DNA of 64,000 bases from Brevinema andersonii. GTDB lineage: Bacteria > Spirochaetota > DYKD01. Numbering within the stretch: the stretch's first letter is position 1; each line of letters begins with the position of its first letter. Where the stretch lies: positions 6,327 to 70,326 of the forward strand of contig DYKD01000005.1 of assembly GCA_020722765.1 (NCBI GenBank). Reading direction: 5' to 3'. Shown here in pieces: positions 15,989-42,157 of this stretch. The notes beneath the pieces were generated by a model. The model saw only the letters and a list, made by a program, of their open reading frames with translations, was not told where the DNA came from and made no database searches. The position numbers and the translations under genes were made by a program.

Positions 15989-16034
15989 TTGACTTCTTTT
16001 GTAATGTTTTTGTATATTAGAAATAGACTAAAAT
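15989..16034 (+). promoter_or_regulatory. sigma70-like promoter (TTGACT-N18-TATATT) plus conserved downstream box for AraR-like regulator 1
   Basis: -35 TTGACT 15989-15994, -10 TATATT 16013-16018, followed by AGAAATAGACTAAAAT. The whole element is duplicated upstream of the paralog at 17294-17338. Confidence 0.55.
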
Positions 16035-16047
16035 GTGGAGTCAAGCT

Positions 16048-18505: not shown

Positions 18506-20596
18506 ATGAGAATTTTTAGTTTGATGGTTTTTAATCTCTTGCTTATTGGCACCTTGTTTGCCCAGACAGCTCAAAATATAAGTGTCAATAATTCAGTCCG
18601 TGGTTACAATACAATAAGTTTTTCACCAGCACCATCAGTTTCCCCAATGTGGTACAAGGTCTATTCTTCTCCCAATCCCATTATGAGTGTGGATGCAAGC
18701 GGTGTCAGATGTCTATCAGATCACTTTTTGGATTTATATCGTGATGGACAAGGGATTGGTGGATGGACAACAACATTTATGAGTGTTTCTGAGGTTTCTG
18801 GAGATGTCAATTCAGGAACTCATGCGATTAAGGCGACAAGTAGCGGTAATTATCAATTGTTTGCTTTTAACTGGAACAAATACATGGGGTCTGACAATGC
18901 TTCAGAGGCTACATCGCTTATCATGTATATTAAAAGATTGTCAGGTGCGACATCAGTCAAGGTGAGACTTAATTTCGTAAAAAATAATTATCAGACTTCA
19001 AATGTGACGATTTCGGGATTGACAACCTCATGGAAAAAGTATGAAATTCCGATTACAAGTTTTTCACAGGGTTGGGGGATGGCGAATTTAAAGACAAATT
19101 TAAAAACCTTAAAAGAGTTAGCAGTCATGTTTGATTCGGCGTCAGTCATCTCTTTTGATGATGTATCACTGTCTAAGGCGGTATTGACAAATTCACTTTC
19201 ATTCACCTATGGGGATCCGGCTTATGGTGTTGGCCTTGATTCGAGCGAAGGTCAATATTTCGCTGTCACTCATGTCTCGAATAACTTAGGTGAAAACAAG
19301 ACGATAGTTGCAGGGCAAAATTCCACTGTGAGTTCATACGCAAATACTCCAGTGAAAACTATTTTAGGTTTAAAAGGAGGGCTTGTTGTTGCTGAAAATG
19401 TTCCTCCTTACTGGGCTGAGGCGTCTTATTCATCAGCGGATTATATACGTATGCCTATTGATACTGATAATAATGGAGATTTTGATGTTAATCCAGGTCT
19501 TTCTGTCTCTGTCTCCAATTCTTTTGATGGTGATGGGGCCATGGCGATCTCTTATCATTCAAGTGAATGGGCTACTACAGGTATTGGGGATACCATCAGC
19601 ATAGTAAATGGGAAGGATATCTCCTTATATGATACGTTGGTATTTTGGGTAAAGGGGTTATACCTTGATTCAGAGAATTGGACTTCACCGGCAAGTGACG
19701 CTGTTCCTGCGTATAATGTCATGGAATTAAGTTTGCAGACACGGAAGCCAAGTCTTCTATCTCCATACTATATTTCTCTAAACGGGTTGACATCTGAATG
19801 GCAAAAGATATCGATTCCATTTTCAGCATTCGGTAATCCCTATCTCGGTATGGATTCATTCCAATTCTTGGTATTTAAATTTGCGGCGTATACAAAAGGG
19901 ACATTTCTGATTGATAAGATTATGGTTGAGAAAAACGGAGCCTCTCCCTCTTTTGAAGAGGCCTTTCAGGTGCTATCCGTTTATCCCAATGATGGAGCTA
20001 TGAATGTATCCTCAAAGTCGAAGATTTCAGTCCGTTTTAATCATCCTATAAGGAGTATGGGTTCTGGAATCAAGATACGTGAAGTGGCAATAACGAATAA
20101 TGTTACTAGAATAAGCAACGGTTTCACATTTAATCCGGATGCTACCATGGTGTCTGTTGACTTTGCATCTATGGATTTGCTTTTAAAGTCCGGGGTTGAG
20201 TATGAAGTTGAGGTTATGGCTGATATTATGGATGCCACGGGAAGTCCGTTAGGAACATCTTTTAAGTATCGTTTTACTGTGTCTGATGTGCTTGAGATTG
20301 GGGAAATCTCTTTTTCAGCCAATCCTTTCAATCCGGAATTGACGACGGACAATTATCTTTCTGTATTTGTATCTGATCCTGTCGCTGAAATCAAGGCTGT
20401 CTTATTTTCTCCCTCAGGGTCACCTGTCATTGTTTATGACGAAGAGAATTCCACTAAAGGGACTTCCACAGAGAAGAAGATCAAAATTACTGGAAAAAAT
20501 GCAGGGGGAGACTTTTTATCCCCTGGGCTATACATAGTACAGCTTGATGTGAATAAAGGTAAGAAGAAAGAGTATAAGACTCTGGTCATCAAATAA
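18506..20596 (+). CDS. secreted multidomain glycan-binding protein with T9SS type-A C-terminal sorting domain
   Basis: Signal peptide (MRIFSLMVFNLLLIGTLFAQ). Several CBM-like beta-sandwich segments. C-terminus 'NPFNPE...LSVFVSDPVAEIKAVLFSPSGSPVIVYDEE...GGDFLSPGLYIVQLDVN' matches the Por/T9SS CTD pattern. Start ATG 18506 with GGAGG RBS. Confidence 0.65.
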   Translation: MRIFSLMVFNLLLIGTLFAQTAQNISVNNSVRGYNTISFSPAPSVSPMWYKVYSSPNPIMSVDASGVRCLSDHFLDLYRDGQGIGGWTTTFMSVSEVSGDVNSGTHAIKATSSGNYQLFAFNWNKYMGSDNASEATSLIMYIKRLSGATSVKVRLNFVKNNYQTSNVTISGLTTSWKKYEIPITSFSQGWGMANLKTNLKTLKELAVMFDSASVISFDDVSLSKAVLTNSLSFTYGDPAYGVGLDSSEGQYFAVTHVSNNLGENKTIVAGQNSTVSSYANTPVKTILGLKGGLVVAENVPPYWAEASYSSADYIRMPIDTDNNGDFDVNPGLSVSVSNSFDGDGAMAISYHSSEWATTGIGDTISIVNGKDISLYDTLVFWVKGLYLDSENWTSPASDAVPAYNVMELSLQTRKPSLLSPYYISLNGLTSEWQKISIPFSAFGNPYLGMDSFQFLVFKFAAYTKGTFLIDKIMVEKNGASPSFEEAFQVLSVYPNDGAMNVSSKSKISVRFNHPIRSMGSGIKIREVAITNNVTRISNGFTFNPDATMVSVDFASMDLLLKSGVEYEVEVMADIMDATGSPLGTSFKYRFTVSDVLEIGEISFSANPFNPELTTDNYLSVFVSDPVAEIKAVLFSPSGSPVIVYDEENSTKGTSTEKKIKITGKNAGGDFLSPGLYIVQLDVNKGKKKEYKTLVIK

Positions 20597-20613
20597 TAAA
20601 GAGGAGTCAACTG

Positions 20614-21531
20614 ATGTTAAAAAAAATTCTGATTATTTCCTTGATCGTTTATGGGACTATGGCTTCAGGCGATGTATTTGTGGATAAAGGTGTTGGAGCT
20701 GCTTCTATCGCCATGGGAGGGCAATCGGTCGCAGTAGGGCAGGATATTTTTGCCCTGTATTGGAATCCTGGTGCTTTAGGTTTTTTAGAGGGGAACAGTA
20801 TTGGCGGTATGTATTCATATCGCTATGGACTCTCAGATATGGTCCACCAATTCATTGCGTCTGCTCTCTCGTATAATTTTATACAGGATAAATCCAAGTT
20901 TATTTTGGCTGCTGGCTATGAATCATTTGGAAGTGGGACTATTTACAACGAGGGTGTTTTGACTGGTACTGTAGTTTTTAACTTGAAAGGGAAATATTCC
21001 GCAGGATTAGCCATGAAATATATGCGATTAAGCGTAGGTGAGGATATTTCAACTTATGGTTTTGCGACCGACTTTGGAATTGATCTGCAATTAGGAGGGA
21101 TAGTATTTGTCGGGTATTCTGCAAAGAATCTCATTTCAACTCATTTGAAATATGATGGAACTGTTGGGACAACCCCCTTTGCCCGTGAGATTGTTTTGCC
21201 AATCAAGCATAAGGTGGGTATTGGGTTAAGTAAACAAAAAATCGGTAAAATAGAACTGGGAACTGATCTCCAATCTTTTAATATTGGGACGGAGCTGTCT
21301 ATACTTTCTTTTTTGAAAGGAAGATATGGTTTTTCAATAGATTTTGGTTCCATTACTGATTTGGATAGTTCTTCTATGCGTCGTATGGAACATGATTTCG
21401 GATTAGGTTTTAACGCCGGAAGGGTTAAGTTTGATTATTCTGTTTCCCTTGAAAGTGATTTGCCTTTGACCCATTTCTTTTCTGTGTCTGCGGTCTTTGG
21501 CAGCCCTAAGATTTTGAATGCATCTAATTAA
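20614..21531 (+). CDS. outer-membrane beta-barrel protein, FadL/PorV/PorQ-like (paralog a)
   Basis: Signal peptide. N-terminal 'GAASIAMGGQSVAVGQDIFALYWNPGALGF' signature of PorV/PorQ/UPF0164-type barrels. Alternating-hydrophobic strands. Lies directly downstream of a CTD cargo gene. Confidence 0.6.
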   Translation: MLKKILIISLIVYGTMASGDVFVDKGVGAASIAMGGQSVAVGQDIFALYWNPGALGFLEGNSIGGMYSYRYGLSDMVHQFIASALSYNFIQDKSKFILAAGYESFGSGTIYNEGVLTGTVVFNLKGKYSAGLAMKYMRLSVGEDISTYGFATDFGIDLQLGGIVFVGYSAKNLISTHLKYDGTVGTTPFAREIVLPIKHKVGIGLSKQKIGKIELGTDLQSFNIGTELSILSFLKGRYGFSIDFGSITDLDSSSMRRMEHDFGLGFNAGRVKFDYSVSLESDLPLTHFFSVSAVFGSPKILNASN

Positions 21532-21549
21532 TTTCATCAGGAGTTGTAT

Positions 21550-24453
21550 ATGTTAATCAGAAATAAATTAACTTTATTTGTTATAACGGTTTTCTTTTTC
21601 TTAGGAATTTCGGGTAATATACTGCTTAATGCACAGGAAGATGAAGAGACAGAGACTACAAAAGTTGAAACTGTGAAGAAGACTCCCAAACCTGCGGCAG
21701 ATGAGGAAGAGGCTGTTGTAGAGAAGCCGGCCAAAAAAGTGAAGAAGGCTCCTAAACCTGCAGTAGATGAGGAAGAATCAGATGAGGAAGAAGCTGTTGT
21801 TGAGAAGCCAGCAAAAAAAGTGAAGAAGGTTTCAAAACCAGTAGCAGATGAAGAAGAGTCAGATGAGGAAGAGGCTGTTGTTGAGAAGCCAGCAAAAAAA
21901 GTGAAGAAGGTTTCAAAACCTGCGGCAGATGAGGAAGAATTAGATGAGGAAGAGGCTGTTGTAGAGAAGCCGGCCAAAAAGGTGAAGAAGGTTTCAAAAC
22001 CTGCGGCAGATGAGGAAGAATTAGATGAGGAAGAGGCTGTTGTAGAGAAGCCGGCCAAAAAGGTGAAGAAGGTTTCAAAACCTGCGGCAGATGAGGAAGA
22101 ATTAGATGAGGAAGAGGCTGTTATTGAGAAGCCAGCTAAAAAGGTCAAGAAGGATCCAAAACAAGAAACTGCTGATGAAGAATTTGATAGTTCAAATGCT
22201 GGGCCTATATTGGAATTGGATGGGGAGGGGGGACAAATAGACCAAAGTATTACAGATGATAGTGATATAATTATTGAAGAGGAAATGATAAAAACTCCTG
22301 ATACAAAGCAGGATTCATCAACTTCAGCTAAAAAGAAGAAGCTCGTTAAAAAAACAAAAGAAAAAAAGGAGGCTTTTGGCAAGTTAGAGACTTTTGAAGA
22401 AGAACTGGGTTGGGATTATTGGTTTGGATCCGGGAATGACAGCCGTTTTAAACATGAACGAACCAAAAAAGATTCTTATGCTGGAAAATATTCATTATAT
22501 ATGGAATATGAGGTGGGGCTGAACTCTGCGGAGAATTGGATTCAAGCTGTAAGGAATTTTTCAAAGCCGTATAATATGTCTGGGAATAGAAGTCTTGTTT
22601 TTTGGCTGAAATCATCTGGAAAAGGTGGGACTTTGTCTGTAACTCTGACGAGTGCAGGAAAGTCCTATGTTTTTATGGACCATTTTGTATTATATAATCC
22701 GAATGGATGGGTAAAAGTAACTGTCCCGCTTACGGCTGCAATGAATGAGATCGATTTAAGTGCTGTTATGGGATATTCGATTGCTTTTCACGCGGGAATA
22801 CCAGTATCTGCCCTCAAAGAACAAAAAACTGCTGGATTGATTTATCCCATAAAATCAATACCCTTTAGGAATTTTCTATATATAGATGAGGTTTCTCTGG
22901 AAAAAGGAGGGAATAATTCTATTGATCCAGGGAAAATGACTGTTGACTATTCAGGCTCATTGAATGTTGCCTACAATAATAATGAATATACAGAGCCGAA
23001 TATGACATCACAATTGGCTGTGGATATTGCCCTCAATGCTGAAAAGTATGCTATTAATGCGAATCTCTCAGTCCCTGTCTCCTTTCCAGCGGAATACTTG
23101 CCTGGAACTTATGGGGATGAAGTCAGAATGCAGACTTATGATTTTACTTCTAAACAGTGGGATTGGAATTATGCCAGACCCATTTATGTCTATTCTTTGA
23201 ATGCTTCTCTTAATAAATTGAAGCCTTTTATTGACAGTATCATGTTTGGGAATTTATCTTTGGATTATGATACCCTTGCTGTTGGTGCTGTTTATAATCA
23301 AAATGGTGTAAATGCTAAGGGGACATTTCCTGATGCCTTTAAATATAGTACTTTTTATGCTAGCCAAAAGAGTGGCGGATATTCGATCGGGGGAATGGTT
23401 TCCCCCCTGTTGACACAAAAAATCCCTGGCTTGGAAATAACAACCGTTTTTCTGAATGATACGCGGAAAGGGAGGATTGTATCAGAGGATAACACTTTTC
23501 AATCGAGGGTTTATAAGAATTTCCAGAATTATGGCATTCATGGTGTTGAACGGATCAAGAATAGCAAGAAAAATAAAAAAATTGATGAGATTGTCTTAGA
23601 AGCTGCTTATTATCTTTCTTCAGAGGATAATATGGGGACTGCACTCCTTAGTCCGGATTATAGCAGGGAGGAGAATTTTGTTCCAGGCTATGTCTATCAA
23701 GGGAAAACGAATGACAGGCTTCTTACAGAAGATAATGCTTACAGGTTTGCATTGGTTTTTAACGGTATTGGCGGTCTCAACTTGAACCAGAAATTTGAGT
23801 TCAGAAAGATCGGGGCGAACTATATGGGCGTTGATACCAATACTTTGGCATGGCTTCCCTTTTTGGAATATAATGTAGGTAATAAGTTGCATGCGGAAGT
23901 TCAGGAAAATTCTGATATTTTGATAAAGTCCTATTGGAGAGATCAGTTTGGTGCTTTTTCAGAGACAAAGTTCACTATACAGAATCTTGATTTAAGTTGC
24001 CGTTTTGATTATGGTAGGCAGGATTCACGCCCAGAATATAGGTTTAAGAATATATCGGCTTCGGCAGGATATGGGCTTTATAAGTTCTATCTTTCATACG
24101 ATTTTGACTTGAGAAATTTCGAGAATATCAATTTCACTCCGGAAAATGAGAAAGGGCTTGCGCATGAACTGGGACTCCATTTCATGTTGGACAACAATAC
24201 TCTCATTAAAACAGCTTATGGTCTGTTCGATTACACTGAAAATGATTCTGTTGTCTATGATAATCAGACTTTTTATGTATATTTCAGCCATAGGATTTTA
24301 GCGAATATCGTCCTTTCAGGTGTTGCAAAGAATGTGATAGCGAATGCCCAGGAATCTGTACCTTCTATGATTTTGACAGGCAAAGAGAATTATCTTAAAG
24401 GTTCTATAGAGACCTATTCTTATTATAATCTGTTTCTCACTATAGCGTTTTAA
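21550..24453 (+). CDS. large outer-membrane protein: signal peptide + acidic/basic 27-aa tandem-repeat linker + CBM-like domain + C-terminal beta-barrel ending in Phe
   Basis: Repeat 'EKPAKKVKKVSKPAADEEELDEEEAVV' about 5.5 times. 'YAGKYSLYMEYEV...VFWLKSSGKGGTLSVTLTSAG' CBM-like domain. Last 500 aa show amphipathic beta-strand periodicity and a terminal '...YYNLFLTIAF' (C-terminal Phe typical of OMPs). ATG 21550 with AGGAG RBS. Confidence 0.55.
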   Translation: MLIRNKLTLFVITVFFFLGISGNILLNAQEDEETETTKVETVKKTPKPAADEEEAVVEKPAKKVKKAPKPAVDEEESDEEEAVVEKPAKKVKKVSKPVADEEESDEEEAVVEKPAKKVKKVSKPAADEEELDEEEAVVEKPAKKVKKVSKPAADEEELDEEEAVVEKPAKKVKKVSKPAADEEELDEEEAVIEKPAKKVKKDPKQETADEEFDSSNAGPILELDGEGGQIDQSITDDSDIIIEEEMIKTPDTKQDSSTSAKKKKLVKKTKEKKEAFGKLETFEEELGWDYWFGSGNDSRFKHERTKKDSYAGKYSLYMEYEVGLNSAENWIQAVRNFSKPYNMSGNRSLVFWLKSSGKGGTLSVTLTSAGKSYVFMDHFVLYNPNGWVKVTVPLTAAMNEIDLSAVMGYSIAFHAGIPVSALKEQKTAGLIYPIKSIPFRNFLYIDEVSLEKGGNNSIDPGKMTVDYSGSLNVAYNNNEYTEPNMTSQLAVDIALNAEKYAINANLSVPVSFPAEYLPGTYGDEVRMQTYDFTSKQWDWNYARPIYVYSLNASLNKLKPFIDSIMFGNLSLDYDTLAVGAVYNQNGVNAKGTFPDAFKYSTFYASQKSGGYSIGGMVSPLLTQKIPGLEITTVFLNDTRKGRIVSEDNTFQSRVYKNFQNYGIHGVERIKNSKKNKKIDEIVLEAAYYLSSEDNMGTALLSPDYSREENFVPGYVYQGKTNDRLLTEDNAYRFALVFNGIGGLNLNQKFEFRKIGANYMGVDTNTLAWLPFLEYNVGNKLHAEVQENSDILIKSYWRDQFGAFSETKFTIQNLDLSCRFDYGRQDSRPEYRFKNISASAGYGLYKFYLSYDFDLRNFENINFTPENEKGLAHELGLHFMLDNNTLIKTAYGLFDYTENDSVVYDNQTFYVYFSHRILANIVLSGVAKNVIANAQESVPSMILTGKENYLKGSIETYSYYNLFLTIAF
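21670..22160 (+). repeat. 81-bp tandem repeat array (five full units 21721-22125 plus partial flanking units) inside the 969-aa ORF
   Basis: Units at 21721, 21802, 21883, 21964, 22045. Units 4 and 5 are identical except for the last 3 nt. In-frame (27 codons per unit). The antisense 281-aa Ser-rich ORF (21537-22382) is an artefact of this repeat. Confidence 0.9.
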
Positions 24454-24474
24454 TCGTAGCATGAGGAGATTGCC

Positions 24475-27186: not shown

Positions 27187-27200
27187 ATTGCGGAGGTGCT

Positions 27201-27866
27201 ATGATGAGAAAATTAGTTCTACTCATATCTTGTGTGATGTTTATGTCTGGCTTTTTGTTGGCAGAGGAAGTCTCTTTTGACGGAGAATGGCCTCATTCCT
27301 GGTTTGGGGCTGGATCCGCGATCAAGGTTTATCAGACGAATACTCATATTTTTGTCAATCAAAATGAGGCCTATCAAGGAGCATCATTGAACATTTTGGA
27401 TTTGGTTCTGTTTGAAAACTCTTCCCCTTCTAAATCAGATTGTTTGGTTCTTCGCTGGATTTTTGATCCTGAAGCTCAAGCAGGTAATACTTGGACTGTG
27501 GCTGTTGTCGCACAACCAAGCTGGACTTTGTTTGATATTGATGGCATGAAATACCTCTCTTTCATGATCAAGGCAAATGTGGAAGGCTTGAATATGGAAG
27601 TATCCATCAGAGATAAGGATGACGCTAAAGCCAGTGCCGGGTGTTTGAATAAATATGTCAAAGATGGCGTAGTCGGAACAGAATGGAAGAAGGTTGTCAT
27701 CCCTCTTGAGGAATCCTATTTTTCCGGGCTTTCTTCCCTTAAAACTGAACAGATTCGGGCCATTGCCTTTGAAGATAATGGGAATTGCAGGTCTGATGTC
27801 GAAGCTGTCCAAAAAGATTGTATTTTGTACATTGATAATCTTGCATTTAAAAAGAAGTTGAAGTGA
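27201..27866 (+). CDS. small secreted CBM-like beta-sandwich protein
   Basis: Signal peptide. 'TWTVAVVAQPSW...VEGLNMEVSIRDKD...ILYIDNLAF' resembles non-catalytic carbohydrate-binding modules. ATG 27201 with GGAGGTG RBS. Confidence 0.5.
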   Translation: MMRKLVLLISCVMFMSGFLLAEEVSFDGEWPHSWFGAGSAIKVYQTNTHIFVNQNEAYQGASLNILDLVLFENSSPSKSDCLVLRWIFDPEAQAGNTWTVAVVAQPSWTLFDIDGMKYLSFMIKANVEGLNMEVSIRDKDDAKASAGCLNKYVKDGVVGTEWKKVVIPLEESYFSGLSSLKTEQIRAIAFEDNGNCRSDVEAVQKDCILYIDNLAFKKKLK

Positions 27867-27894
27867 TTTTTTATATTTTAGTTTTGGGTATTTT

Positions 27895-29232
27895 ATGAAG
27901 AATTTTTTATTATTGACATTTTTTTATCTTGGTTTTTTCAGTGTTGTGCATGCCAGTTTTGATTATTTAGGCCGTTATCCTGCCAGTGATTCCCTTGCAG
28001 GCGCTTATGTTGCTGGGGACGGTGTGGAATCCATCAACTTCAACGTTGCTGGTTTAGCTTCTGATTTTAAGAATGGTTTTTCTTTCAGATATATGGGCTT
28101 GAAGCAGGATGTTGTGTCAAAACAGGTTTCAGTTATTGGGGGAAGTCTCTTTTTTACTTCAGCCTCAGGTGTTTCTACAGGCCTTTTTATGGATTTTTTC
28201 GATGTTGCTTCAATCTATAGGGAATATTTTTTCAGTATCCCTTTCGTCTATTCTCATGCCGCTCATAAAGGGAATTCTATCAGCTACGTCGCTTTAGGTG
28301 TTGCGCTAAAAATGTTCTCGTGGTCTTCTGTTTCGGATGGGAGTGAGAAACTTTCCATACGGCCGACAGTCAATGCGGATATTGGGTTGCGTTTAGGTGT
28401 GCTTGAGACTTTCTTTTGGGGAGTTTCTGTCCGTAACCTCTTGCCTGTAACTGTTTCTCTTGATCTCAATACCTCTGCTGAAAAGATGGCACCAGAATTG
28501 ACTTCAGGATTTCTTTTCCCGTTTGTCGTCTCTCAGAGTCTTGTAGATAAAATTTCCTGGTATCTTGATTTTTCGCGGCAGTTCCAATTTGCCGAGTATT
28601 CTTCCAAGATGAGATATGCTTCTGGTATGGAGTTCAGTATGGGGAACAGCCTGTTCAAAATAAGGGGAGGCTTGGCTATTGATGACCCAGATGACGAAGC
28701 ATTTGTCTTTAAGCCTGCATTTGGTTTTGGTATCGGAGTGGGGAAAGCCTCATCGTATGAAATGGATTTAAGTTACAGGACTTCGTATGCTTCGCAATTC
28801 GGTTTTTTTAATTTTTCCGTCAAGATAGGATTTTTAGGGAAGCCTCATACATCTGAATACTCTGATGTTGGCACTGGACCATCCGCTGACAGGACTGAAC
28901 AACCAGCAGATGATATTGCTGCTGAAACTCCTATTGTCACTACAATCGAAAAAGAGAAGCCTGATAAAAACAAGATCCGTTTTTCCATGCCATCAGGAGA
29001 GTATGAAAATCCGTTTATCCTGGAGATGACCCCGCAACTAGAATGTATGTTATATCTTACTATGGATGGATCTGACCCGGATTTGGATTCTTACAAGGTT
29101 CAGTTTACGGGAAAACCCATAAAAATCAAGATTAAGAAATCGACTGTATTGAAAATACTTGTTGTTACTCCAGGCATAGAAAATGATACAATCTATACAA
29201 AGTCGTATTCTTTACTGGATGAAGGGAGTTGA
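27895..29232 (+). CDS. outer-membrane beta-barrel protein, FadL/PorV/PorQ-like (paralog b) with extra C-terminal Ig/FN3-like domain
   Basis: Signal peptide. 'ASDSLAGAYVAGDGVESINFNVAGLA' N-terminal signature. About 300-aa barrel, then an acidic linker and a 110-aa beta-sandwich tail. Directly downstream of cargo genes. Confidence 0.55.
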   Translation: MKNFLLLTFFYLGFFSVVHASFDYLGRYPASDSLAGAYVAGDGVESINFNVAGLASDFKNGFSFRYMGLKQDVVSKQVSVIGGSLFFTSASGVSTGLFMDFFDVASIYREYFFSIPFVYSHAAHKGNSISYVALGVALKMFSWSSVSDGSEKLSIRPTVNADIGLRLGVLETFFWGVSVRNLLPVTVSLDLNTSAEKMAPELTSGFLFPFVVSQSLVDKISWYLDFSRQFQFAEYSSKMRYASGMEFSMGNSLFKIRGGLAIDDPDDEAFVFKPAFGFGIGVGKASSYEMDLSYRTSYASQFGFFNFSVKIGFLGKPHTSEYSDVGTGPSADRTEQPADDIAAETPIVTTIEKEKPDKNKIRFSMPSGEYENPFILEMTPQLECMLYLTMDGSDPDLDSYKVQFTGKPIKIKIKKSTVLKILVVTPGIENDTIYTKSYSLLDEGS

Positions 29233-29237
29233 TTAAC

Positions 29238-34682: not shown

Positions 34683-34714
34683 TGACACGGACTGTAACTC
34701 ATCCGGAGGGATAT

Positions 34715-36784
34715 ATGACCTTACGATTAAAGGCGCATGTTTTTCTTTTCTCCTGTTTTTTTGTCTTTCTGTTCTCTTTTAGCCTGTTTGCCCAGTTAAA
34801 AGAAGCGTCAATGTTCAGCTTTGAAAGAGGCTTGAATGGATTTGATGTCTCTAAATATAATGATGCGGGATCTGGTCAGAAAATTTTCATTAACACGAAT
34901 AAGAAATTTGTTTTTTCTGGAAAACAATCCTTGGGTGTGCAACTCGATTTGGTAGGAACGAAAAAGGAACAGAGATTTATTGCCTCGGCTATTCTTGGAG
35001 AAAGGACATGGTATGCCAAGACCCTTTCCATAAAAGTCTGGTTGCCTGAAGAGATGAAGGGGAGCCGGTTTCTCGTCTTTTTTCAGTCGGCTTGGTGGGC
35101 GAATTGGGCTCAAACGAAAGATTATAATTTGAATCCTGGATGGAACACAATCAAGATTGACCTGGTTTCTATGAGCGATATCCGCAAAGGGATTGCAGGA
35201 AAAGATTATACGCCTCCGAATGATCCGGCTCGTTTTGTGGATGAGGATGGGAATGTTAACAGATTCAGGTTCAAGATTGATTTCAACAAGATGAGTACCC
35301 TTGGTTTTACCATCCTTTATACGCCGGACAGAAATGTGAAAACGACTTATTATATTGATGAAGTTACATTCACTTATGATCCGAAGGATGAGAAAATTTT
35401 CAAATTGGCCAATACAGTTGCTAAAAAATGGGAAAAAACATCTGTTTCTCTTAATGCGGGATTATATGGAGGAATCGTTAATAAGAATGTAATGGCTTTT
35501 AATTTGGATTCCATAGGGTTAAGTGATGATTTTCTAAAGAAAAAACTTAAGGATGCCGGGACTGGATTGGTCAGGACATGGGCTTTTGGTGGGTATGATC
35601 AACAGATGACCCTTGTGAATCCTAAGGAAGGTGTTTATCATTGGGAGGATTGGGATAAACTTATCAAAGCAATTTATGACGCGGGTTGGGAACCATTGAT
35701 AACACTTGGGGAGTGCCCCGCTTGGAATGGAAAGCCTAAAGGGCCACCTTTGGATTATGAAAAATGGGCGGATATGGCAGCTGCCTTTGTCCAACATTTC
35801 AATAAGGATCTTGGATATAATATAAAATACTGGGAAATTTGGAACGAGCCGGAATATTTCTGGCTTGGATCTGAAAAGGAATACAACAAGTTAGTAGCTA
35901 TTGCTGCCCCGAAGATGAAACAGGTTGATCCGAAAATTAAAATCATGGCTGGCGCATGGGCAAACCCTAACAATATCCGTGTCCGGCTTCCCAGACTTCT
36001 CGATTCTGTCGATTTGAATGCTATTGATCTTATCTCCTATCATCACTATCTGACATGGCCAGGCACTTCAGACCATGATGTCATGCAGATGACGGATGAT
36101 TTTGAGTACCCTCCTGTAATGGCACGGGAAATCTTTAAAGCTATGGGAATAAAGAAAAAACTTGATGTTATGATGACAGAAGCGAATGTGCAGGCTTCTG
36201 GGAACTGGGATCCCAGGATTTTAACGGTTTTTTGGCCTGTGTATTGGGCTTCGAGCTTGACGAAATTTATCAGGCAAAATGTACCGAGTGCTGTTTATTT
36301 CACTTTTTCCGGAACTCTTTTCGGTGCTGTAGAGGATGATATCCGTCCTATTTATAATCTTTGGCCTTTGTTGCAGAAAAAAGCGCGTATCCTGGGAAAA
36401 CGTTGGGTTTACTCCAAGTCTGATTCAGCATGGTTGGAAACTATGGGATTTATCGATGCCAACCATTTTTCCATCATGGTTGTCAATAAGAATACCGAAG
36501 GAAACGGTTATGAAACAGATATAAAGGTGAAAGGGATGCCTCTCACCTCGGCCTTGAAAGTGTGGCAGCTGAGTGATTCAAATGACGGGACACAGTCTGT
36601 TGGCAGTGTCAAAGTTATTGACGGAAAGTTCTATTACAAATTCCCCCCTTATTCGGTTACAGTGTTTGAAGGAGATTTGTCCTCGTCTTTTGACCTAAGC
36701 CTTCAGAAAAAATTTCAGTATAAGCCCAAAGGGACTAAAACTGAAATTAAGACAGGGCAAGATGGGGTGAAGTTCACACAATGA
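34715..36784 (+). CDS. clan GH-A glycoside hydrolase (GH39/GH5-like), secreted (paralog b)
   Basis: 'YWEIWNEPEYFW', 'IMAGAWANPNN', 'DLISYHHY'. Collinear with the 24475 paralog but lacks the CBM9 tail. ATG 34715 with GGAGGG RBS and signal peptide. Confidence 0.65.
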   Translation: MTLRLKAHVFLFSCFFVFLFSFSLFAQLKEASMFSFERGLNGFDVSKYNDAGSGQKIFINTNKKFVFSGKQSLGVQLDLVGTKKEQRFIASAILGERTWYAKTLSIKVWLPEEMKGSRFLVFFQSAWWANWAQTKDYNLNPGWNTIKIDLVSMSDIRKGIAGKDYTPPNDPARFVDEDGNVNRFRFKIDFNKMSTLGFTILYTPDRNVKTTYYIDEVTFTYDPKDEKIFKLANTVAKKWEKTSVSLNAGLYGGIVNKNVMAFNLDSIGLSDDFLKKKLKDAGTGLVRTWAFGGYDQQMTLVNPKEGVYHWEDWDKLIKAIYDAGWEPLITLGECPAWNGKPKGPPLDYEKWADMAAAFVQHFNKDLGYNIKYWEIWNEPEYFWLGSEKEYNKLVAIAAPKMKQVDPKIKIMAGAWANPNNIRVRLPRLLDSVDLNAIDLISYHHYLTWPGTSDHDVMQMTDDFEYPPVMAREIFKAMGIKKKLDVMMTEANVQASGNWDPRILTVFWPVYWASSLTKFIRQNVPSAVYFTFSGTLFGAVEDDIRPIYNLWPLLQKKARILGKRWVYSKSDSAWLETMGFIDANHFSIMVVNKNTEGNGYETDIKVKGMPLTSALKVWQLSDSNDGTQSVGSVKVIDGKFYYKFPPYSVTVFEGDLSSSFDLSLQKKFQYKPKGTKTEIKTGQDGVKFTQ

Positions 36785-36827
36785 CAAGATTTAAAGAAAA
36801 AAAATAAAATTATTTTTGGAGGTTCCC

Positions 36828-39800
36828 ATGAAGAAGATTTGGATGTTGGTCTTGTCCTTTTTTCTTGCTATGGCTGTCAATTCTGAGGCAGCACTCACTT
36901 ACACTGATGTTTATACTGATGCTGGAGGTTGGGCGAACCCTTCTGGATCGCTCTATGGATGGGGGTATGCTGAAGTTGATGGCGAAGGTGTTGGTGGGAG
37001 TAAATGTATAAAATCCAATTATCATGTTACCAGTTGGTATGATGGTGGTGCGATAAATATTAATAATTGGGGCGGTGATGGTACGGGTAAAAATCTCAAT
37101 GAATATGATTTTATTGAAGTGAGTTATAAGATAACCGGTCCTGCCACTCTTCTTATGTTTTTCATGGATGCAGATGGTGTCGCTGCTCACATGGCCGGAG
37201 GGATTGATACGAGTACAACAAGTGGTGGTATAGTTGTGGGTTATTCGAATGGCGCTCAAACAACATATAAGACTGTCAGAATCCCTATACAGGCTTTTAC
37301 TGGACCTGGCAGCTATGGAATTGATGATGTTAAGAATATAGCTTTTAATTTGAGTGGAGTTGAATCAGGGAGTGGGACAGTCTGGATTGACAATATCCGT
37401 GTTGCCAAAGGAACAGAAGATTTTGAGACATCTACCAATACCCGTATTTGCATCATAGGGGATTCAATAACTGAATCCAGAGAAGGAACTGAAGGGTGCA
37501 AAAGTTTCAGATATAATCTTTGGCAGAAGCTTACAAATTCCGGGTATAAGAAAATAGATTTTGTCGGTGTTCATAAAGGTGTATATACGAGTAGAACTGA
37601 TTGGATGGGTTACACTGGACACGGACAAGGGATTCCCTGTCAAACTGATTATGATCAGGATAGTGAAGGTTGGTGGGGATTTCCTGTTGATTACTTGGGC
37701 AATGCCTTGCCAGCTCATATGACTTTTTATACCCCGGATATTGCCATGATACATTTAGGGCATAATGATCTTTACTGGCAAATGATTTTGAAAGGTCAGA
37801 CAGCAGCAGAAGCTATAGCCATGACCACAAATGAATTGAGATATATGGTCCGAAATCTTAGGTTGAAAAATCCAAACGTCAAGGTCGTTATAGGTCAAGT
37901 GATTCGGATGTCATCAGGGAATGAGAATCTTGACACTTATCGCGCATTAATTCCAATTCTTGCCAAGGCTCTCAGTAATGCCGCATCCCCTGTCATCAGT
38001 TGGGATTTTAATTCTGGAATGGATCCAACATTCCTTTATGATGGAACACATCCAAATCCGACTGGTGAACAGACCATGGCAACCAATTACTATAATGCAC
38101 TTGTAAGGCTATTGCCCCCATTGCCTTCCACAGGCATTGGAATCTCTGCTGTTTCTGTTTCTCCTTCATCTTTTACAAACACTGCAGCACATCTCATCAC
38201 TCTTAATGCAACAGCTGTAGATTCCAATGGGAGTATAACAGGAGTGACTGCTGACCTCTCTTCTGTAGGTGGTTCTGCTACTTATGCTTTGTCTTCTGCT
38301 AATGGGACTAACTGGAGTGCCACATATAATGTCGCTTCCGGTATTTCACATGGTGTAAAAACTATAACGTTTAAGGCTACTGATAATTCAGGAAATACAA
38401 GGTCGTTATCAACTTCCATCACTGTTTATCCGCCTCCAGGGACATTGGATGAGACTCTTGTTTATGTTGATGCAGGTGGTCTGGTGGGAGCTAATTTTTG
38501 GGGAGCCACAGAAGTCACAACGGGAGGTCCTATTGAAGGAACAAAACATCTTTACAAATCTTATAATGTGACAACATATTGGGATGGATTTGGTTTGTGT
38601 GTGAATGGTTGGGCAGCTGGACCAACTGCAGGGATTGACTTTTCACAATATGATTTCCTCGAAATCAGCTACAAGCTTTCCGGTCCTGCAGGATTGTATC
38701 TCGCGCTGGCAGATGCTTACACAAATGGCGGACAACGGACTGCTGGTGGTGCCTCAACAGCTGGGAAAATTTATGTCGGTTATTCCAACTCCTCATATAA
38801 AACTGTAAGAATCCCTATAAACGCTTTCAAATGGAACAGTTCACCAGCTGGCGTGACAAATGTCCAACAAATCTTGATCTCATTGAGCGGACTTTCGAAT
38901 GCTACAGGTGAAGTGTATGTGGATAATATAAAACTATTAAAAGGTTCTGAGGCTTTTACAACCTCGTCCAATACCCGTATAGTATGTATTGGTGATTCTA
39001 TTACGGAAGGAATAGAAGGTACTCCTGGAACCGTCAGTTACAGACGTACCTTGTGGCATCTGATTACAAACAATGGTTTTAAAACAGTTGACTTTGTTGG
39101 CTCTTTGAATGGCTGCTGGCCTTTAAGCCCTCCGAATAATGGTCCGGCCATGCATGGAACGGGAACTCCTGACTTTGTAGATTATGATATGGATCATGAA
39201 GGCTGGGTAGGTTATCCAGCCGAATATCTGGCAAATGCCATTTCTGCTCACATGAATTCATATACTCCAGATATCGCCCTCATACACTTGGGGCATAATG
39301 ATGAAATGGGATGGCATGATTCTGTTGATAGCACAACCAACGATATTGCAAAATTAGTGGATAACCTGCGGTTTAAGAATCCGAATATAAAGATTGTGCT
39401 TGGTCAGATTATTCTTCCCTCCAGTGACCCATCGGGCTGGTATGCAGATTATCGGGCTCGTCTTGCCTCTTTGGCAACTCGCTTAAATACTGCTGGTTCG
39501 CCTGTCATTGCCTGGGATATCAACACGCACATGGGTACTGCAGGTGAAAATCTGCATGACGGAACGCATCCTAGTGTAGAAGGTGAGAATATCATGGCTA
39601 CAAATTTTTACAATGCTTTGCTTACATGGCTTCCTGCACCTGCAGGTTCTGGTCTCTCCCTATCGTCAGTCACAGTGACACCATCGAGCATTTCCAATAA
39701 TCAGGCGCATGTAATCACTTTGAATGCCACAGCCATTGATTCTAATGGGAGTATAACAGGAGTGGTTGCAAACCTCTCGTCTGTTGGTGGGTCAACATCT

Positions 39801-41189
39801 TTCCCTCTTACAAATATCGGAGGGAACAACTGGAGAGGATCCTATACGGTTGCTGCGTGGGTTACCCCCGGCGTGAAATCATTGGGATTGACAGCCACGG
39901 ATGATACATCTCATACCATAAATCAGTCAGTCTCTTTGACAGTGCTGGATGGATCAAAAGGGATTTCACTCACTTCAGTAGCTGTTAATCCTTTGTCTAT
40001 CACCAATAATGCCGCACGCATCATAACAGTCACAGCCACTGCCAGTGACACGAATGGGACTATTTCTGGATTATCAGTGAATTTGTCTGCAGTAGGAGGC
40101 TCTTCAGGTTTTCCTATGACAAATATCGGAGGAAACAATTGGCGTGCCTCCTATACAGTGGCATCCGGATATGCTGTGGGAACAAAGACTTTGACAGTGC
40201 GTGCCATGGATGATGCTGGTAACAGTAGCAGCAATACGGCTTTGCTCAATATCCTCAGCACAACCCCTATAGGTATCAGTATTATGTCGCCGTCTGTTAC
40301 ACCAACAAATATTTTGAATAATGTTCCAAATATAATAACGATTTCTGTTGTGGCTTCGGATTCCAATGGGAGCATAACAGGAGTGACTGCTAACCTTTCT
40401 CCAGTAGGCGGTTCAGCATCCTTTTCTCTTGCAAATACTGGTGGGAATAACTGGAGTGGCACATATACGGTTGCTGCTGGTGTTTCCATTGGAGTTAAGA
40501 CAATCTATATTACGGCAACAGACGATTCAACATTCAGTAGGTCTATTTCTGATACAATAACCGTAGTAGATGGAGCAAATGGCATCTCTATGACAGGATT
40601 AGTGATGTCACCAGCAGTGTTGACAAATAATAAGGATAGGTTGTTAACTGTTTCTTTGACAGTCGCTGACAGTAACGGCACTATAAGTGGTGTTACTGCA
40701 GATTTATCAAGTATAGGAGGTAGTTCAGCTCAAGCCATGAGTTCGACAGGTGGTGGTGGCTATCAAGTTTCCTATTTGGTAGATTCCAGCAGCCTCTCAG
40801 CAGGTTCCTATGCCTTGTCGATACGGGCAACAGACAATTCGGGTAATACCAGGACATTGACAACGAATATCCGTGTAGTAGCAGAAGCGCTGAAGTTGAA
40901 TACGTTCCAGATCTCGCCAAACCCACTGATTCTTTCTGGATCAAAACAGAATGGGACAGAGTTCAAGATCCTCTATTCAGCCAAGGCTGGTGCAGATGTC
41001 GCTTTTGAAGTTTATACCATTTTGGGTGAAACTGTCATTCAGTTGACGGATGAGACAGGTTCCGGAGAGATTATCTGGGATGGTAAAAATGATAAAGGCG
41101 TTCAGATCGTTTCAGGTGTCTATCTGTTATTCATGCGCGTCAACGGACAGAAGATGGAGTCTCCTGTCAAGTTCGGACTTTTGAGATGA
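36828..41189 (+). CDS. giant secreted protein: two CE2-like (beta-sandwich + SGNH) esterase cassettes + Ig-like domain array + T9SS type-A CTD
   Basis: Two 'C(I)IGDSITE...GHNDL...DGTHP' SGNH blocks, each preceded by a 'YTDAGG...NNWGGDGTG...YDF.E.SYK' beta-sandwich. C-terminus 'ISPNPLIL...VAFEVYTILGETV...IIWDGKNDKGVQIVSGVYLLFMRV' is a classic Por CTD. Confidence 0.7.
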   Translation: MKKIWMLVLSFFLAMAVNSEAALTYTDVYTDAGGWANPSGSLYGWGYAEVDGEGVGGSKCIKSNYHVTSWYDGGAININNWGGDGTGKNLNEYDFIEVSYKITGPATLLMFFMDADGVAAHMAGGIDTSTTSGGIVVGYSNGAQTTYKTVRIPIQAFTGPGSYGIDDVKNIAFNLSGVESGSGTVWIDNIRVAKGTEDFETSTNTRICIIGDSITESREGTEGCKSFRYNLWQKLTNSGYKKIDFVGVHKGVYTSRTDWMGYTGHGQGIPCQTDYDQDSEGWWGFPVDYLGNALPAHMTFYTPDIAMIHLGHNDLYWQMILKGQTAAEAIAMTTNELRYMVRNLRLKNPNVKVVIGQVIRMSSGNENLDTYRALIPILAKALSNAASPVISWDFNSGMDPTFLYDGTHPNPTGEQTMATNYYNALVRLLPPLPSTGIGISAVSVSPSSFTNTAAHLITLNATAVDSNGSITGVTADLSSVGGSATYALSSANGTNWSATYNVASGISHGVKTITFKATDNSGNTRSLSTSITVYPPPGTLDETLVYVDAGGLVGANFWGATEVTTGGPIEGTKHLYKSYNVTTYWDGFGLCVNGWAAGPTAGIDFSQYDFLEISYKLSGPAGLYLALADAYTNGGQRTAGGASTAGKIYVGYSNSSYKTVRIPINAFKWNSSPAGVTNVQQILISLSGLSNATGEVYVDNIKLLKGSEAFTTSSNTRIVCIGDSITEGIEGTPGTVSYRRTLWHLITNNGFKTVDFVGSLNGCWPLSPPNNGPAMHGTGTPDFVDYDMDHEGWVGYPAEYLANAISAHMNSYTPDIALIHLGHNDEMGWHDSVDSTTNDIAKLVDNLRFKNPNIKIVLGQIILPSSDPSGWYADYRARLASLATRLNTAGSPVIAWDINTHMGTAGENLHDGTHPSVEGENIMATNFYNALLTWLPAPAGSGLSLSSVTVTPSSISNNQAHVITLNATAIDSNGSITGVVANLSSVGGSTSFPLTNIGGNNWRGSYTVAAWVTPGVKSLGLTATDDTSHTINQSVSLTVLDGSKGISLTSVAVNPLSITNNAARIITVTATASDTNGTISGLSVNLSAVGGSSGFPMTNIGGNNWRASYTVASGYAVGTKTLTVRAMDDAGNSSSNTALLNILSTTPIGISIMSPSVTPTNILNNVPNIITISVVASDSNGSITGVTANLSPVGGSASFSLANTGGNNWSGTYTVAAGVSIGVKTIYITATDDSTFSRSISDTITVVDGANGISMTGLVMSPAVLTNNKDRLLTVSLTVADSNGTISGVTADLSSIGGSSAQAMSSTGGGGYQVSYLVDSSSLSAGSYALSIRATDNSGNTRTLTTNIRVVAEALKLNTFQISPNPLILSGSKQNGTEFKILYSAKAGADVAFEVYTILGETVIQLTDETGSGEIIWDGKNDKGVQIVSGVYLLFMRVNGQKMESPVKFGLLR

Positions 41190-41224
41190 GTTTTGAATAA
41201 AATTTTTCAAAAACGAGGTAGCTT

Positions 41225-42157
41225 ATGAAAATCAGAAAAATGCTTGTTGTTCTCGGAACGATTTTTGTTTTGTCAACACTTCTGTCAGCAGGTGGAGAAT
41301 CAGGGATGATTTTTATGCGCCTTTCCCCTGATGCCAGGGGGAATTCATTAGCAGGATCTATAATCGGAAATGTAGATACATTGAGCAGTCTGGTATGGAA
41401 TCCTGCAGGGCTTGCAAAAATGACCAAAAAAAATGTTCAATTCTCCTACACTCGTTGGATAGCCGACATGAATCATATATATTTGGCGTATGGCATGCCA
41501 CTCGTAAAGATCAAATATGGTAAAATAGCTACAAGTCTTGTCTTTTTCAGTCAAGGGTTATTGGATCAGACAACAGGTCTTGATACCGATTTGTCTGGAT
41601 TGGACTCTTATGACCTATCGTTGACTGTCGGTTATGGGAAAACATTCGGAAGTGCCCAAATTGGCGGAAGCTTGCATTATATCACAAGTAAAATTCTCGG
41701 AGAAAGTTTAAGTGGGATGGCATTGGATTTCGGGACGCAGTATGCTTTTGACAAGAAGAAAAGGTATAAGGCCGGATTTGTCTTGAAGAATGTAGGGTTC
41801 AATACCATGTCGGAATCAATGCCCATGTTAGTCCAATTGGGATTTGGCGCGAAATTTCTGCAGGCTTCTGATATTATTTTGGCCAATATCAGTGGAGATT
41901 ATGTTGTGGCAGAACAGGATATGATAGTTCGGTTGGGCATGGAATATGGAATTAAAAAAATGGTTTTTTTGAGAGCTGGGTATAAATACGAGTCCGGTTC
42001 TTCCACTTTAGGTGGGGTGAAAGGGCTGACACTTGGTATTGGCGGTAATTTTAAGCCCGCTATCGATTTTGTCAAAACATTCAATGCTGATATAACCTGG
42101 ATACCAGTTGGAGAGTTAGGGAATTCTGTTCAGTTTACAATAGGCGCGAAATTCTGA
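41225..42157 (+). CDS. outer-membrane beta-barrel protein, FadL/PorV/PorQ-like (paralog c)
   Basis: Signal peptide. 'SPDARGNSLAGSIIGNVDTLSSLVWNPAGLA' signature. Ends '...VQFTIGAKF' (C-terminal Phe). Directly downstream of the CTD cargo gene at 36828. Confidence 0.6.
   Translation: MKIRKMLVVLGTIFVLSTLLSAGGESGMIFMRLSPDARGNSLAGSIIGNVDTLSSLVWNPAGLAKMTKKNVQFSYTRWIADMNHIYLAYGMPLVKIKYGKIATSLVFFSQGLLDQTTGLDTDLSGLDSYDLSLTVGYGKTFGSAQIGGSLHYITSKILGESLSGMALDFGTQYAFDKKKRYKAGFVLKNVGFNTMSESMPMLVQLGFGAKFLQASDIILANISGDYVVAEQDMIVRLGMEYGIKKMVFLRAGYKYESGSSTLGGVKGLTLGIGGNFKPAIDFVKTFNADITWIPVGELGNSVQFTIGAKF

Follow-up and report, generated by a model that had tools for sequence, protein, structure and literature searches.

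In the PorU-PorV system (P. gingivalis PG0026/PG27 LptO; F. johnsoniae PorV, PDB 6H3I/8GL6), as in the locus described here, the gene for a protein with a C-terminal sorting domain (CTD) adjoins a gene for a PorV-family 14-strand barrel; PorU and PorV, the products of the two neighbouring genes, form a complex. PorU retains its CTD and remains bound to PorV at the cell surface (PMC10202324). PorQ is a dedicated PorV-family barrel that holds PorZ through an uncleaved CTD (PMC10202324, PMC10947112), and the T9SS CTDs known to escape cleavage and stay attached to a barrel are two, those of PorU and of PorZ (PMC10202324). The gene for a type B CTD cargo is linked to that of its own PorP/SprF barrel, with specificity residing in the CTD-barrel pair (PMC12618676, PMC9143113), and a 2023 review raises the possibility that "cognate PorV-like beta-barrels" deal with CTDs that are not cleaved (PMC10202324). 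In the current literature every type A CTD is served by a single, shared PorV, an arrangement from which cognate pairs such as those proposed below would differ. In the locus studied here, three exported proteins with a FlgD-Ig-like CTD each adjoin the gene for their own small 14-strand barrel of the PorV/PorQ superfamily.

Gene content of the operon

Within the window (the whole 64-kb stretch of DNA analysed), the genes from 18467 to 42157 are all packed at spacings of -61 to +35 bp, which indicates a single operon. The operon and the genes flanking it are as follows:

16033-17178 and 17352-18470, + strand: two tandem paralogous regulators directly upstream of the operon, each with a GntR wHTH and a LacI-type sugar-binding domain (Pfam GntR, Peripla_BP_3/1)
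18506-20596, + strand: cargo 1, with signal peptide, CBM-like beta-sandwich modules, a Big_5 Ig domain (Pfam) and a C-terminal CTD at about 20339-20593 (custom CTD HMM, 90.6 bits)
20614-21531, + strand: barrel 1, 305 aa, a remote PorV/PorQ-superfamily outer-membrane barrel starting 17 bp after cargo 1 (PorV_fam, family HMM, hhalign)
21544-24453, + strand: p969, with signal peptide, E/K-rich repeat linker, CBM-like module and a C-terminal region of ~520 aa ending ..TIAF
24475-27186, + strand: GH39/GH5-like glycoside hydrolase with signal peptide and C-terminal CBM9 (Pfam Glyco_hydro_39, Cellulase, CBM9_1)
27183-27866, + strand: CBM30-like protein, 227 aa, with a possible lipobox (LISC) and without a CTD (Pfam CBM30, 25.8 bits)
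27895-29232, + strand: barrel 2, an orphan of 445 aa; a divergent 14-strand barrel of PorV-like type occupies its N-terminal ~313 aa, and a linker connects this to a C-terminal CHB_HEX_C_1 domain (aa 366-434)
29238-34682, + strand: cargo 2, with GH8 endoglucanase (Pfam Glyco_hydro_8, 166 bits), SGNH/GDSL esterase (Lipase_GDSL_2), some 10 Ig-like repeats of 103 aa and a CTD at about 34425-34679 (CTD HMM, 69.7 bits)
34715-36784, + strand: GH39-like hydrolase with signal peptide and N-terminal CBM-like module, without a CTD (Pfam Glyco_hydro_39); the ORF opens at 34622 and 34715 is the likely start
36828-41189, + strand: cargo 3, with two units of CBM-like module plus SGNH/GDSL esterase (Pfam Lipase_GDSL, Lipase_GDSL_2 x2), Ig-like repeats and a CTD at about 40932-41186 (CTD HMM, 72.4 bits)
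41225-42157, + strand: barrel 3, 310 aa, a PorV/PorQ family barrel starting 35 bp after cargo 3 and ending ..GAKF (PorV_fam, 138.8 bits)
42360-44753, + strand: GH94 cellobiose/cellodextrin phosphorylase without a signal peptide (Pfam Glyco_hydro_94, GH94_b-supersand)

These coordinates and the strand agree with the preliminary description of the locus, as does its identification of three large secreted proteins: 18506-20596, 29238-34682 and 36828-41189 each carry a signal peptide and end in an Ig-like CTD of ~80 aa, and the custom CTD HMM matches exactly these three ORFs in the window, finding no CTD in the GH39/GH5-like hydrolase. No catalytic domain was detected in cargo 1, whose orthologues in two related loci (L001 and L003) are 42-46% identical and which has a remote homologue in a third (L013), and the repeats of cargo 2 are 309-nt units that include one block duplication, 95% identical.

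The same description, however, presented the locus as three repeats of one gene pair, in which each cargo is followed by its barrel at a short spacing of 18-36 bp. Cargo 1 and cargo 3 are followed by a barrel in this way, but barrel 2 lies downstream of the CTD-less CBM30-like protein and precedes cargo 2, which starts 5 bp after it in the reverse order. The measured spacing of 17-35 bp is no hallmark of the pairs given the dense packing of the whole operon, and the pairs are not copies of one another: BLASTP among the three barrels finds the N-terminal motif as the sole shared region, and the CTDs of the three cargoes are of different subtypes.

The barrels and the cargo C-terminal domains

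The N-terminal signature attributed to the barrels (..A.S.A(M/L)(G/A)G......NP(A/G)(G/A)L) is present in all three, whereas the C-terminal aromatic residue also attributed to them is found in barrel 3 but not in barrel 1, which ends ..AVFGSPKILNASN, or in barrel 2, which bears a 130-aa C-terminal extension with the CHB_HEX_C_1 domain. An HMM of the barrel family, derived from 97 distant homologues and excluding window sequences, matched only the three barrel ORFs in the 64 kb, at 177, 176 and 48 bits; the barrel 1 score is 176 bits, and the 48-bit match of barrel 2 is a full-length one. Compared with the NCBIfam models (cutoffs of 90 bits for the PorV/PorQ family NF033709, 250 for PorV NF033710 and 220 for PorQ NF033711), barrel 3 lies above the family cutoff and below both equivalog cutoffs (PorQ, 97.7 bits; PorV, 68.8 bits), barrel 1 falls below the family cutoff at 58.1 bits (E 1e-15), with 43 bits for PorV2 and 21.1 bits for PorV, again under the equivalog cutoff, and barrel 2 matches neither PorV_fam nor PorV nor PorQ. 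Alignment of barrel 1 to the barrel-3 family by hhalign (99.5%, E 3e-22, 281 columns), together with the full-length custom HMM match of barrel 2, supports the assignment of barrels 1 and 2 as remote members of the PorV/PorQ family.

Profile searches of the PDB matched the barrel-3 family to F. johnsoniae PorV (6h3i_F) at E 5e-35 and to TodX at E 4e-3, and the sole significant match of the barrel-1 profile was again PorV (6h3i_F, E 2e-6); in both sequence and structure, all three barrels match PorV best. As had been expected, each is a 14-strand barrel of the FadL superfamily and bears the ..NPAGLA motif in an N-terminal segment; the model of barrel 2 depends on the family alignment (single-sequence AF2 gave pLDDT 30). 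No PorP/SprF family appeared among the barrel matches in Pfam and NCBIfam at E up to 1, Toluene_X (FadL/TodX, PF03349) matched barrel 3 alone at 13.7 bits against a GA of 29.7, and several barrel homologues carry PF03687. The profile-HMM comparison proposed in the preliminary description thus supports placing the barrels alongside PorV/PorQ within the FadL superfamily, rather than with generic FadL/TodX or PorP/SprF proteins. The alternative offered there, that the barrels are FadL-like uptake channels for the degradation products, we judge very unlikely, given the sub-threshold Toluene_X score and the preference for PorV over TodX. FadL channels transport hydrophobic compounds, not cellodextrins, and at other loci the pairing involves unrelated passengers without enzymatic function that have only a CTD in common.

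The barrels nonetheless differ from PorV itself, being about 300 aa long versus about 390 in F. johnsoniae, lacking a PorV segment of ~66 aa, falling well below the PorV equivalog cutoff and occurring several to a locus where PorV is one general shuttle; their partners are glycan-binding and hydrolytic cargo, not a C25 sortase. Barrel 3 resembles PorQ in that PorQ, at 98 bits, is its best equivalog-level match, but it stays under the PorQ cutoff of 220 and its partner is not PorZ; porZ and porQ are not known to be adjacent in P. gingivalis. The arrangement follows the same logic as type B cargo with PorP/SprF, but with another barrel family and another CTD class.

The CTDs, described earlier as type A, are related to that class by a resemblance that is sub-threshold: TIGR04183 (cutoff 23 bits) gives 20.4 bits for cargo 1, 21.1 bits for cargo 3 and no match for cargo 2, and Pfam Por_Secre_tail (PF18962, 27 bits) matches none of the three. 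FlgD_ig (GA 27) gives 27.3 bits for the isolated CTD of cargo 2 and 22.2 bits for cargo 3, type B/CHU_C scores do not reach those for FlgD_ig and type A, and the C-terminal 123 aa of cargo 3 score 53 bits against the PorU C-terminus. Of 15 barrel-adjacent CTDs, 12 have a TIGR04183 match with E of 0.1 or less, 12 match the NCBIfam PorU C-terminus and nine the PorZ C-terminus. Their profile finds the CTDs of PorU (6za2, E 3.5e-6) and PorZ (5m11, E 5e-6) in the PDB and is far weaker against ordinary cargo CTDs (E 0.16-0.42). The Por_Secre_tail GA is exceeded by CTD proteins whose genes do not immediately precede a barrel gene (39.5 bits in L009, 29.1 bits in L005), whereas 11/11 barrel-adjacent CTDs score below it, which points to the latter as a putative distinct subclass coexisting with canonical type A cargo.

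These CTDs, which score higher against FlgD-Ig than against the T9SS models, could instead be barrel-docking domains, not T9SS signals, and each pair a self-contained device for surface attachment or export that functions in T9SS-less lineages as well. T9SS core genes (sprA, porK/L/M/N, porU) are indeed absent from the 64-kb window, and UPF0164 / "PorV/PorQ family" barrels, which belong to the same superfamily as ours, are present in spirochaetes that lack T9SS and CTD cargo (bioRxiv 10.1101/2025.01.03.631275), and both observations also count against our best explanation, cognate CTD-barrel pairs serving a T9SS. We consider T9SS-independent anchoring improbable, however, because folded proteins of 700-1800 aa could not be exported through so narrow a structure as a 14-strand barrel with a plug, because canonical Por_Secre_tail cargo in L005 and L009 means that a T9SS is probably present there, and because PorU and PorZ have similar CTDs.

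Conservation of the cargo-barrel linkage

Shuffling the gene order produced comparable adjacency in about 0.1% of cases for a 48-gene window and in about 8-13% for the 10-gene operon (p about 0.1). Adjacency within the operon alone is therefore not significant and is weak evidence, and significance rests on a comparative survey, for which barrel-1 homologues were chosen in rank order from an exhaustive phmmer search with their gene contexts still unseen. In all ten loci (L001, L003, L008, L012, L013, L015, L016, L017, L018 and L019) a same-strand gene ending in a CTD lies immediately upstream, at gaps of -4 to +90 bp (p about 1e-7 at an assumed background rate of 20%), which effectively refutes a coincidence of gene order in a large operon, for all that the operon shuffles allowed it. 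The same arrangement, with the CTD gene upstream, is seen at barrel-3-like loci (L005-7, L009/10), and the pairing recurs in many other uncultured bacteria. The upstream passengers are mutually unrelated (Big_5/CBM, NHL propeller, fn3, unknown) and include no C25 PorU peptidase; since the CTD alone is common to them, the coupling is to the CTD and not to a substrate. CTD subtype tracks barrel subtype (Mantel rho 0.54, p 2e-4), a signal largely due to orthology. These data support a cargo-barrel linkage that is conserved and general.

The synteny of cargo and barrel did not hold throughout. The cargo 3-barrel 3 adjacency is absent in L001, the sole relative with a barrel-3 orthologue (50% identical), where a p969 orthologue precedes the barrel, a giant GH44 protein with a different C-terminal domain follows it and a cargo-3-type CTD lies about 7 kb upstream; barrel 2 has no orthologue. 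This loss of adjacency would suit one or more barrels, most likely barrel 3, being a general PorV or PorQ with no cargo specificity: of the three, barrel 3 comes closest to the canonical type (PorV_fam 139, PorQ 98 and PorV 69 bits), and its nearest relatives include L005/L009-type barrels in possible core cassettes beside GWxTD genes. Such a housekeeping role seems unlikely to us, given that three such barrels lie inside 24 kb, that the L001 orthologue also sits in an equivalent polysaccharide locus, that barrel 3 is far under both equivalog cutoffs, and that every barrel-1-type gene has a CTD gene as its partner, joined in one lineage by p969.

p969, which contains an 81-bp x5.7 tandem repeat at 21698-22162 and has no Pfam, NCBIfam or PDB match, may form a large outer-membrane barrel with its C-terminal ~520 aa, as its conserved terminal Phe and its composition suggest. 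Orthologues (29-43% identity) lie directly 3' of barrel-1-type genes in L001, L003 and L013/L014, and the order cargo 1-barrel 1-p969 is kept in four loci; with the L013 members only 22-29% identical to those of the window, the triad has co-diverged as a unit. That the barrels, like BamG, serve as platforms to which a lipoprotein or an adjacent barrel attaches (the CBM30-like lipoprotein and p969 would be candidates), and not as platforms for CTDs, is hard to reconcile with this pattern: the CTD gene is the invariant neighbour across distant loci, whereas p969 is confined to the triad lineage. The barrels, moreover, are PorV-like in sequence, with no significant similarity to BamG, of the BamG-BamH pair in the Bacteroidota BAM, or to FadL/TodX beyond the fold, and they partner with CTD proteins, not lipoproteins. 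We think a scaffold role correspondingly improbable.

A proposed route to the cell surface

We favour, with moderate confidence, a reading in which the pairs are cognate CTD-barrel anchoring or shuttle pairs that would extend porU-porV, the precedent for neighbouring genes, and PorZ-PorQ, each barrel probably holding its cargo on the cell surface via the C-terminal sorting domain. The earlier view that cargo-linked PorV-like paralogs are undescribed fits the literature searched, except that PorU-PorV, PorZ-PorQ and the 2023 review are precedents (PMC10202324); overall, the earlier observation is partly confirmed and its interpretation partly supported. Sec would carry the cargo, whose signal peptides are visible in the sequence, across the inner membrane, and the CTD would direct it to a T9SS-type outer-membrane translocon. 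On the general PorV/PorU route the CTD would be removed by cleavage; here it would stay uncleaved and dock on the extracellular face of the cognate barrel, which would act as dedicated carrier and then as non-covalent cell-surface anchor, in the way that PorV serves PorU, PorQ serves PorZ and PorP/SprF barrels serve type B cargo. Glycan-binding cargo 1 and the two multi-domain GH8/esterase enzymes would thereby be displayed on the surface, and their products imported, possibly via p969, the co-conserved putative barrel, to be broken down in the cytoplasm by the GH94 phosphorylases.

The region from 18.5 to 42.2 kb is best explained as one regulated operon for cell-associated beta-glucan/hemicellulose breakdown, an explanation to which, taken whole, we incline. 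A LacI-family regulator occupies the position in L001 equivalent to that of the window's two regulators, and the GH94 phosphorylases, of which a second copy lies at 50690-53140, are the intracellular end of the pathway. The host of this cellulose-degrading operon is an uncultured cave bacterium.

Gene organization of the cargo-barrel locus

Between 18.5 and 42.2 kb, the gene map of the window shows ten genes on the + strand with intergenic gaps of -61 to +35 bp, a run that reads as a single operon, in the following order:

18506-20596, +, cargo 1, a secreted protein with Big_5 and CBM-like modules and a C-terminal sorting domain (CTD)
20614-21531, +, barrel 1, a PorV-like outer-membrane protein
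21544-24453, +, p969, a protein encoded directly after barrel 1
fourth gene, +, a GH39/GH5-like hydrolase with CBM9
fifth gene, +, a CBM30-like protein of 227 aa
27895-29232, +, barrel 2, a PorV-like outer-membrane protein
29238-34682, +, cargo 2, a secreted protein with GH8, GDSL esterase, Ig repeats and a CTD
eighth gene, +, a GH39-like hydrolase
36828-41189, +, cargo 3, a secreted protein with two GDSL esterase units, Ig repeats and a CTD
41225-42157, +, barrel 3, a PorV-like outer-membrane protein

The operon is preceded by two GntR/LacI-type regulators in tandem and followed by cytoplasmic GH94 cellodextrin/cellobiose phosphorylases and two beta-helix proteins. A Frasassi sulfidic-cave biofilm read set (SRR1559028) contains the exact window sequence. 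Scanning the window for promoters and terminators gave no signal above that of shuffled controls, and an Rfam search of the window returned a tRNA-His and nothing else.

Just 5' of the regulators, the segment 13946-16044 is low in GC (35%) and encodes a polysaccharide deacetylase, a minus-strand PIN/Phd-type toxin-antitoxin pair and a GH42 fragment truncated to 145 aa, which covers no more than model positions 1-91 out of 376; the segment may represent the junction of an acquired locus. A BatA/BatD/VWA/TPR (Bat aerotolerance-like) cluster adjoining the tRNA-His (59595-63347) bears no relation to the cargo-barrel genes. Within cargo 2, Ig-like repeats of 309 nt occupy 32215-34062, and a block that begins at 32524 recurs from 33454 on, 95% identical across the 300 nt of the reference copy; the duplicated protein segment is by eye about 310 aa, or roughly 930 bp, and looks like a recent internal expansion of the enzyme's spacer.

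Family membership of the barrels

By sequence, barrel 3 is a bona fide PorV/PorQ-family protein: it scores 138.8 bits against the family model (cutoff 90), though under the PorV and PorQ equivalog cutoffs, and a profile of its few homologues matches Flavobacterium johnsoniae PorV (6H3I chain F) with an E-value of 5e-35 and TodX with just 4e-3. Barrel 1 is sub-threshold on the same family model (58 bits), but it aligns with the barrel-3 family over 281 columns (hhalign probability 99.5%), and PorV is the sole significant PDB match of its orthologue profile. These results bear out the PorV/PorQ type assigned in the preliminary description, which had also considered FadL-like uptake channels; curated models gave no significant FadL/Toluene_X signal and no PorP/SprF signal for the barrels. 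By BLASTP, similarity among the three is confined to the N-terminal motif, indicating that they are three ancient lineages of one superfamily and not, as had been proposed, recent repeats of the same gene pair. The C-terminal aromatic residue ascribed to all three is present in barrel 3, which ends in Phe, but not in barrels 1 and 2.

Barrel 2 returned only itself in a homologue search. Its 130-aa tail, with a CHB_HEX_C_1 domain at aa 366-434 (window 28990-29196), lies C-terminal to a 14-strand barrel predicted by AF2 with the family MSA, and by topology this domain should be periplasmic. Long C-terminal extensions also occur in other family members, namely P0024 (855 aa) and P0041 (1269 aa), the latter with a tail that is TPR-like by eye.

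Conservation of the cargo-barrel linkage

The preliminary description held that each cargo gene is followed by a barrel gene, which is the case for cargo 1 and cargo 3, but barrel 2 precedes cargo 2 and follows no cargo. Shuffling the ten operon genes produced equal or better cargo-barrel adjacency in about 8-13% of trials, so within the window alone the pairing is no more than chance would give, and a Mantel test was discounted as confounded by orthology. Barrel 1 has 513 relatives by exhaustive phmmer search, from which ten were taken by rank with their contexts still unseen, and all ten (L001, L003, L008, L012, L013, L015, L016, L017, L018 and L019) have a CTD-ending gene directly upstream on the same strand, at gaps of -4 to +90 bp. 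The same CTD-gene-then-barrel arrangement is found at the barrel-3-like loci L005-L007 and L009/L010; it is absent from L011, from the barrel-3 orthologue of L001 and from L004, a Flavobacteriaceae locus whose barrel is perhaps a true PorQ. Scanning a genome collection with the barrel-1 trio turned up a single distant Flavobacteriaceae locus, and scanning metagenomes with barrel 3 and P0002 turned up three distant ones, about 25% identical. We conclude that the comparative evidence for the pairing is strong.

The passengers carried by the upstream genes are mutually unrelated, comprising an NHL propeller, fn3, CBM/Big_5 and other domains without assignment, and a match to C25 or to the PorU N-terminus was seen in none of the surveyed genes, so that the idea of their being simply porU was rejected. 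What is conserved is therefore the coupling of the barrel with the CTD. A housekeeping PorV/PorQ function, a T9SS-independent module, a BamG-like scaffold, FadL-like uptake and coincidence all account more poorly for this invariant CTD neighbour across unrelated passengers.

The order cargo 1-barrel 1-p969 is kept in L001, L003 and L013/L014, and the three members have diverged in parallel, with identity to the window falling to 22-29% in L013. In L001, a barrel-3 orthologue directly follows this triad; the locus lacks the six intervening genes of the window, barrel 2, cargo 2 and cargo 3 among them, and encodes a cargo-3-type CTD protein about 7 kb upstream. Thus, the cargo 1-barrel 1 pairing is robustly conserved, that of cargo 3 with barrel 3 is not, and that of barrel 2 with cargo 2 is unique to this genome.

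Always encoded after barrel-1-type genes, p969 matched no known family or PDB chain, and its homologue search returned only the query itself; we suspect that it is a novel large outer-membrane barrel, possibly an uptake channel. Its signal peptide is followed by an E/K-rich linker, for which a tandem repeat of 81 bp codes (5.7 copies, 21698-22162), then by a CBM-like module and a C-terminal region of about 520 aa ending in ..TIAF (..TINF in an orthologue). A cassette recurring in uncultured bacteria (L005-L007, L009 and L010) parallels the way in which the window combines a CTD protein with a PorV-like barrel and a big barrel: it starts with a Por_Secre_tail protein and a CarboxypepD_reg/TonB-dependent-type barrel of about 900-940 aa, followed by a CTD protein of about 1000-1117 aa without known domain, a PorV_fam barrel and another CTD protein or GWxTD proteins. 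A relationship between p969 and the TonB-dependent receptors of the L005/L009 cassette was rejected (hhalign probability 0.3%).

The C-terminal domains and a proposed cognate-pair model

In the window, a custom CTD HMM matched the three cargo ORFs and no others. Their earlier designation as type A CTDs stands as a resemblance, but cargo 1 (20.4 bits) and cargo 3 (21.1 bits) fall below the cutoff of 23 of the T9SS type A model TIGR04183, cargo 2 does not match it, none of the tails matches Pfam Por_Secre_tail, and FlgD_ig scores are at or near threshold. When a profile of 15 barrel-adjacent CTDs was compared with the PDB, it matched the FlgD Ig domain (E 1e-9) and the CTDs of PorU (3.5e-6) and PorZ (5e-6), and ordinary cargo CTDs at best with E 0.16-0.42. 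Among T9SS proteins, PorU and PorZ are the two with CTDs known to escape cleavage and stay attached to PorV and PorQ, respectively (PMC10202324). In L009 and L005, the Por_Secre_tail threshold is passed by CTD proteins whose genes do not immediately precede the barrel and never by those whose genes do, suggesting that barrel-adjacent CTDs form a distinct subclass alongside ordinary type A cargo.

The most economical reading is that cargo and barrel are cognate CTD-barrel pairs, in which the small PorV-like barrel would bind the uncleaved CTD of the protein encoded next to it, presumably a T9SS substrate, and would thereby receive this protein and retain it at the cell surface. Here, glycan-binding and hydrolytic proteins would be displayed within a cellodextrin-phosphorylase pathway. 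Such cognate pairs would generalize the PorU-PorV and PorZ-PorQ arrangement and parallel type B CTDs with PorP/SprF. The family assignments, the barrel fold, the gene linkage and the likeness of the CTDs are shown by the analysis; binding, retention of the CTD, reliance on a T9SS and an uptake role for p969 are inferred. A fuller proposal, which we consider rather unlikely, is that they represent a widespread and as yet undescribed sorting class, in which it is not a shared PorV that recognizes the divergent FlgD-Ig-type CTD but a small PorV-like barrel whose gene comes immediately after, and that in the window's lineage they join p969, with its CBM-like module and large novel barrel, in a machine that captures glycans at the surface and imports them, functionally a counterpart of SusC/SusD made from T9SS parts in a host assumed to lie outside the cultured Bacteroidota.

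In current T9SS models, one PorV shuttle serves all type A CTDs, and private gene-linked shuttles are a feature of type B alone (PMC12618676). We found no description of a CTD/PorV-like-barrel gene-pair family in the searchable literature, in keeping with the suggestion that the pairs are undescribed, but a 2023 review speculates, no more, on "cognate PorV-like beta-barrels" (PMC10202324), and the NCBIfam "PorV2" model indicates that extra PorV-like sorters are already known to curators. If the pairs are cognate, PorV-like barrels of about 300 aa systematically encoded right after CTD proteins would be a large family that alters the picture of the T9SS, and the pairing of a CTD with a barrel of its own would hold generally, for PorU-PorV, PorZ-PorQ, type B CTDs with PorP/SprF and the pairs described here. 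It could explain how bacteria of environmental lineages retain large enzymes for polysaccharide breakdown at their surfaces without relying on A-LPS/sortase chemistry, would offer many natural pairs for deciphering the recognition code and would allow thousands of metagenomic outer-membrane proteins now labelled "hypothetical" to be annotated by a simple rule.

Another conserved C-terminal domain, some 125 aa long, ends the beta-helix proteins 44799-48746 and 48784-50661 and also closes a GH44 giant of L001 (L001 10950-18587) encoded directly after the barrel-3 orthologue (28-38% identity). With no match in Pfam or NCBIfam and the motif ..ITNG..GW..STN..P.Q.Y.S..Y..(I/V)RWVRW..Y(R/K)VV(I/V)(K/R) at its very end, this domain may serve as a sorting or anchoring signal of another kind.
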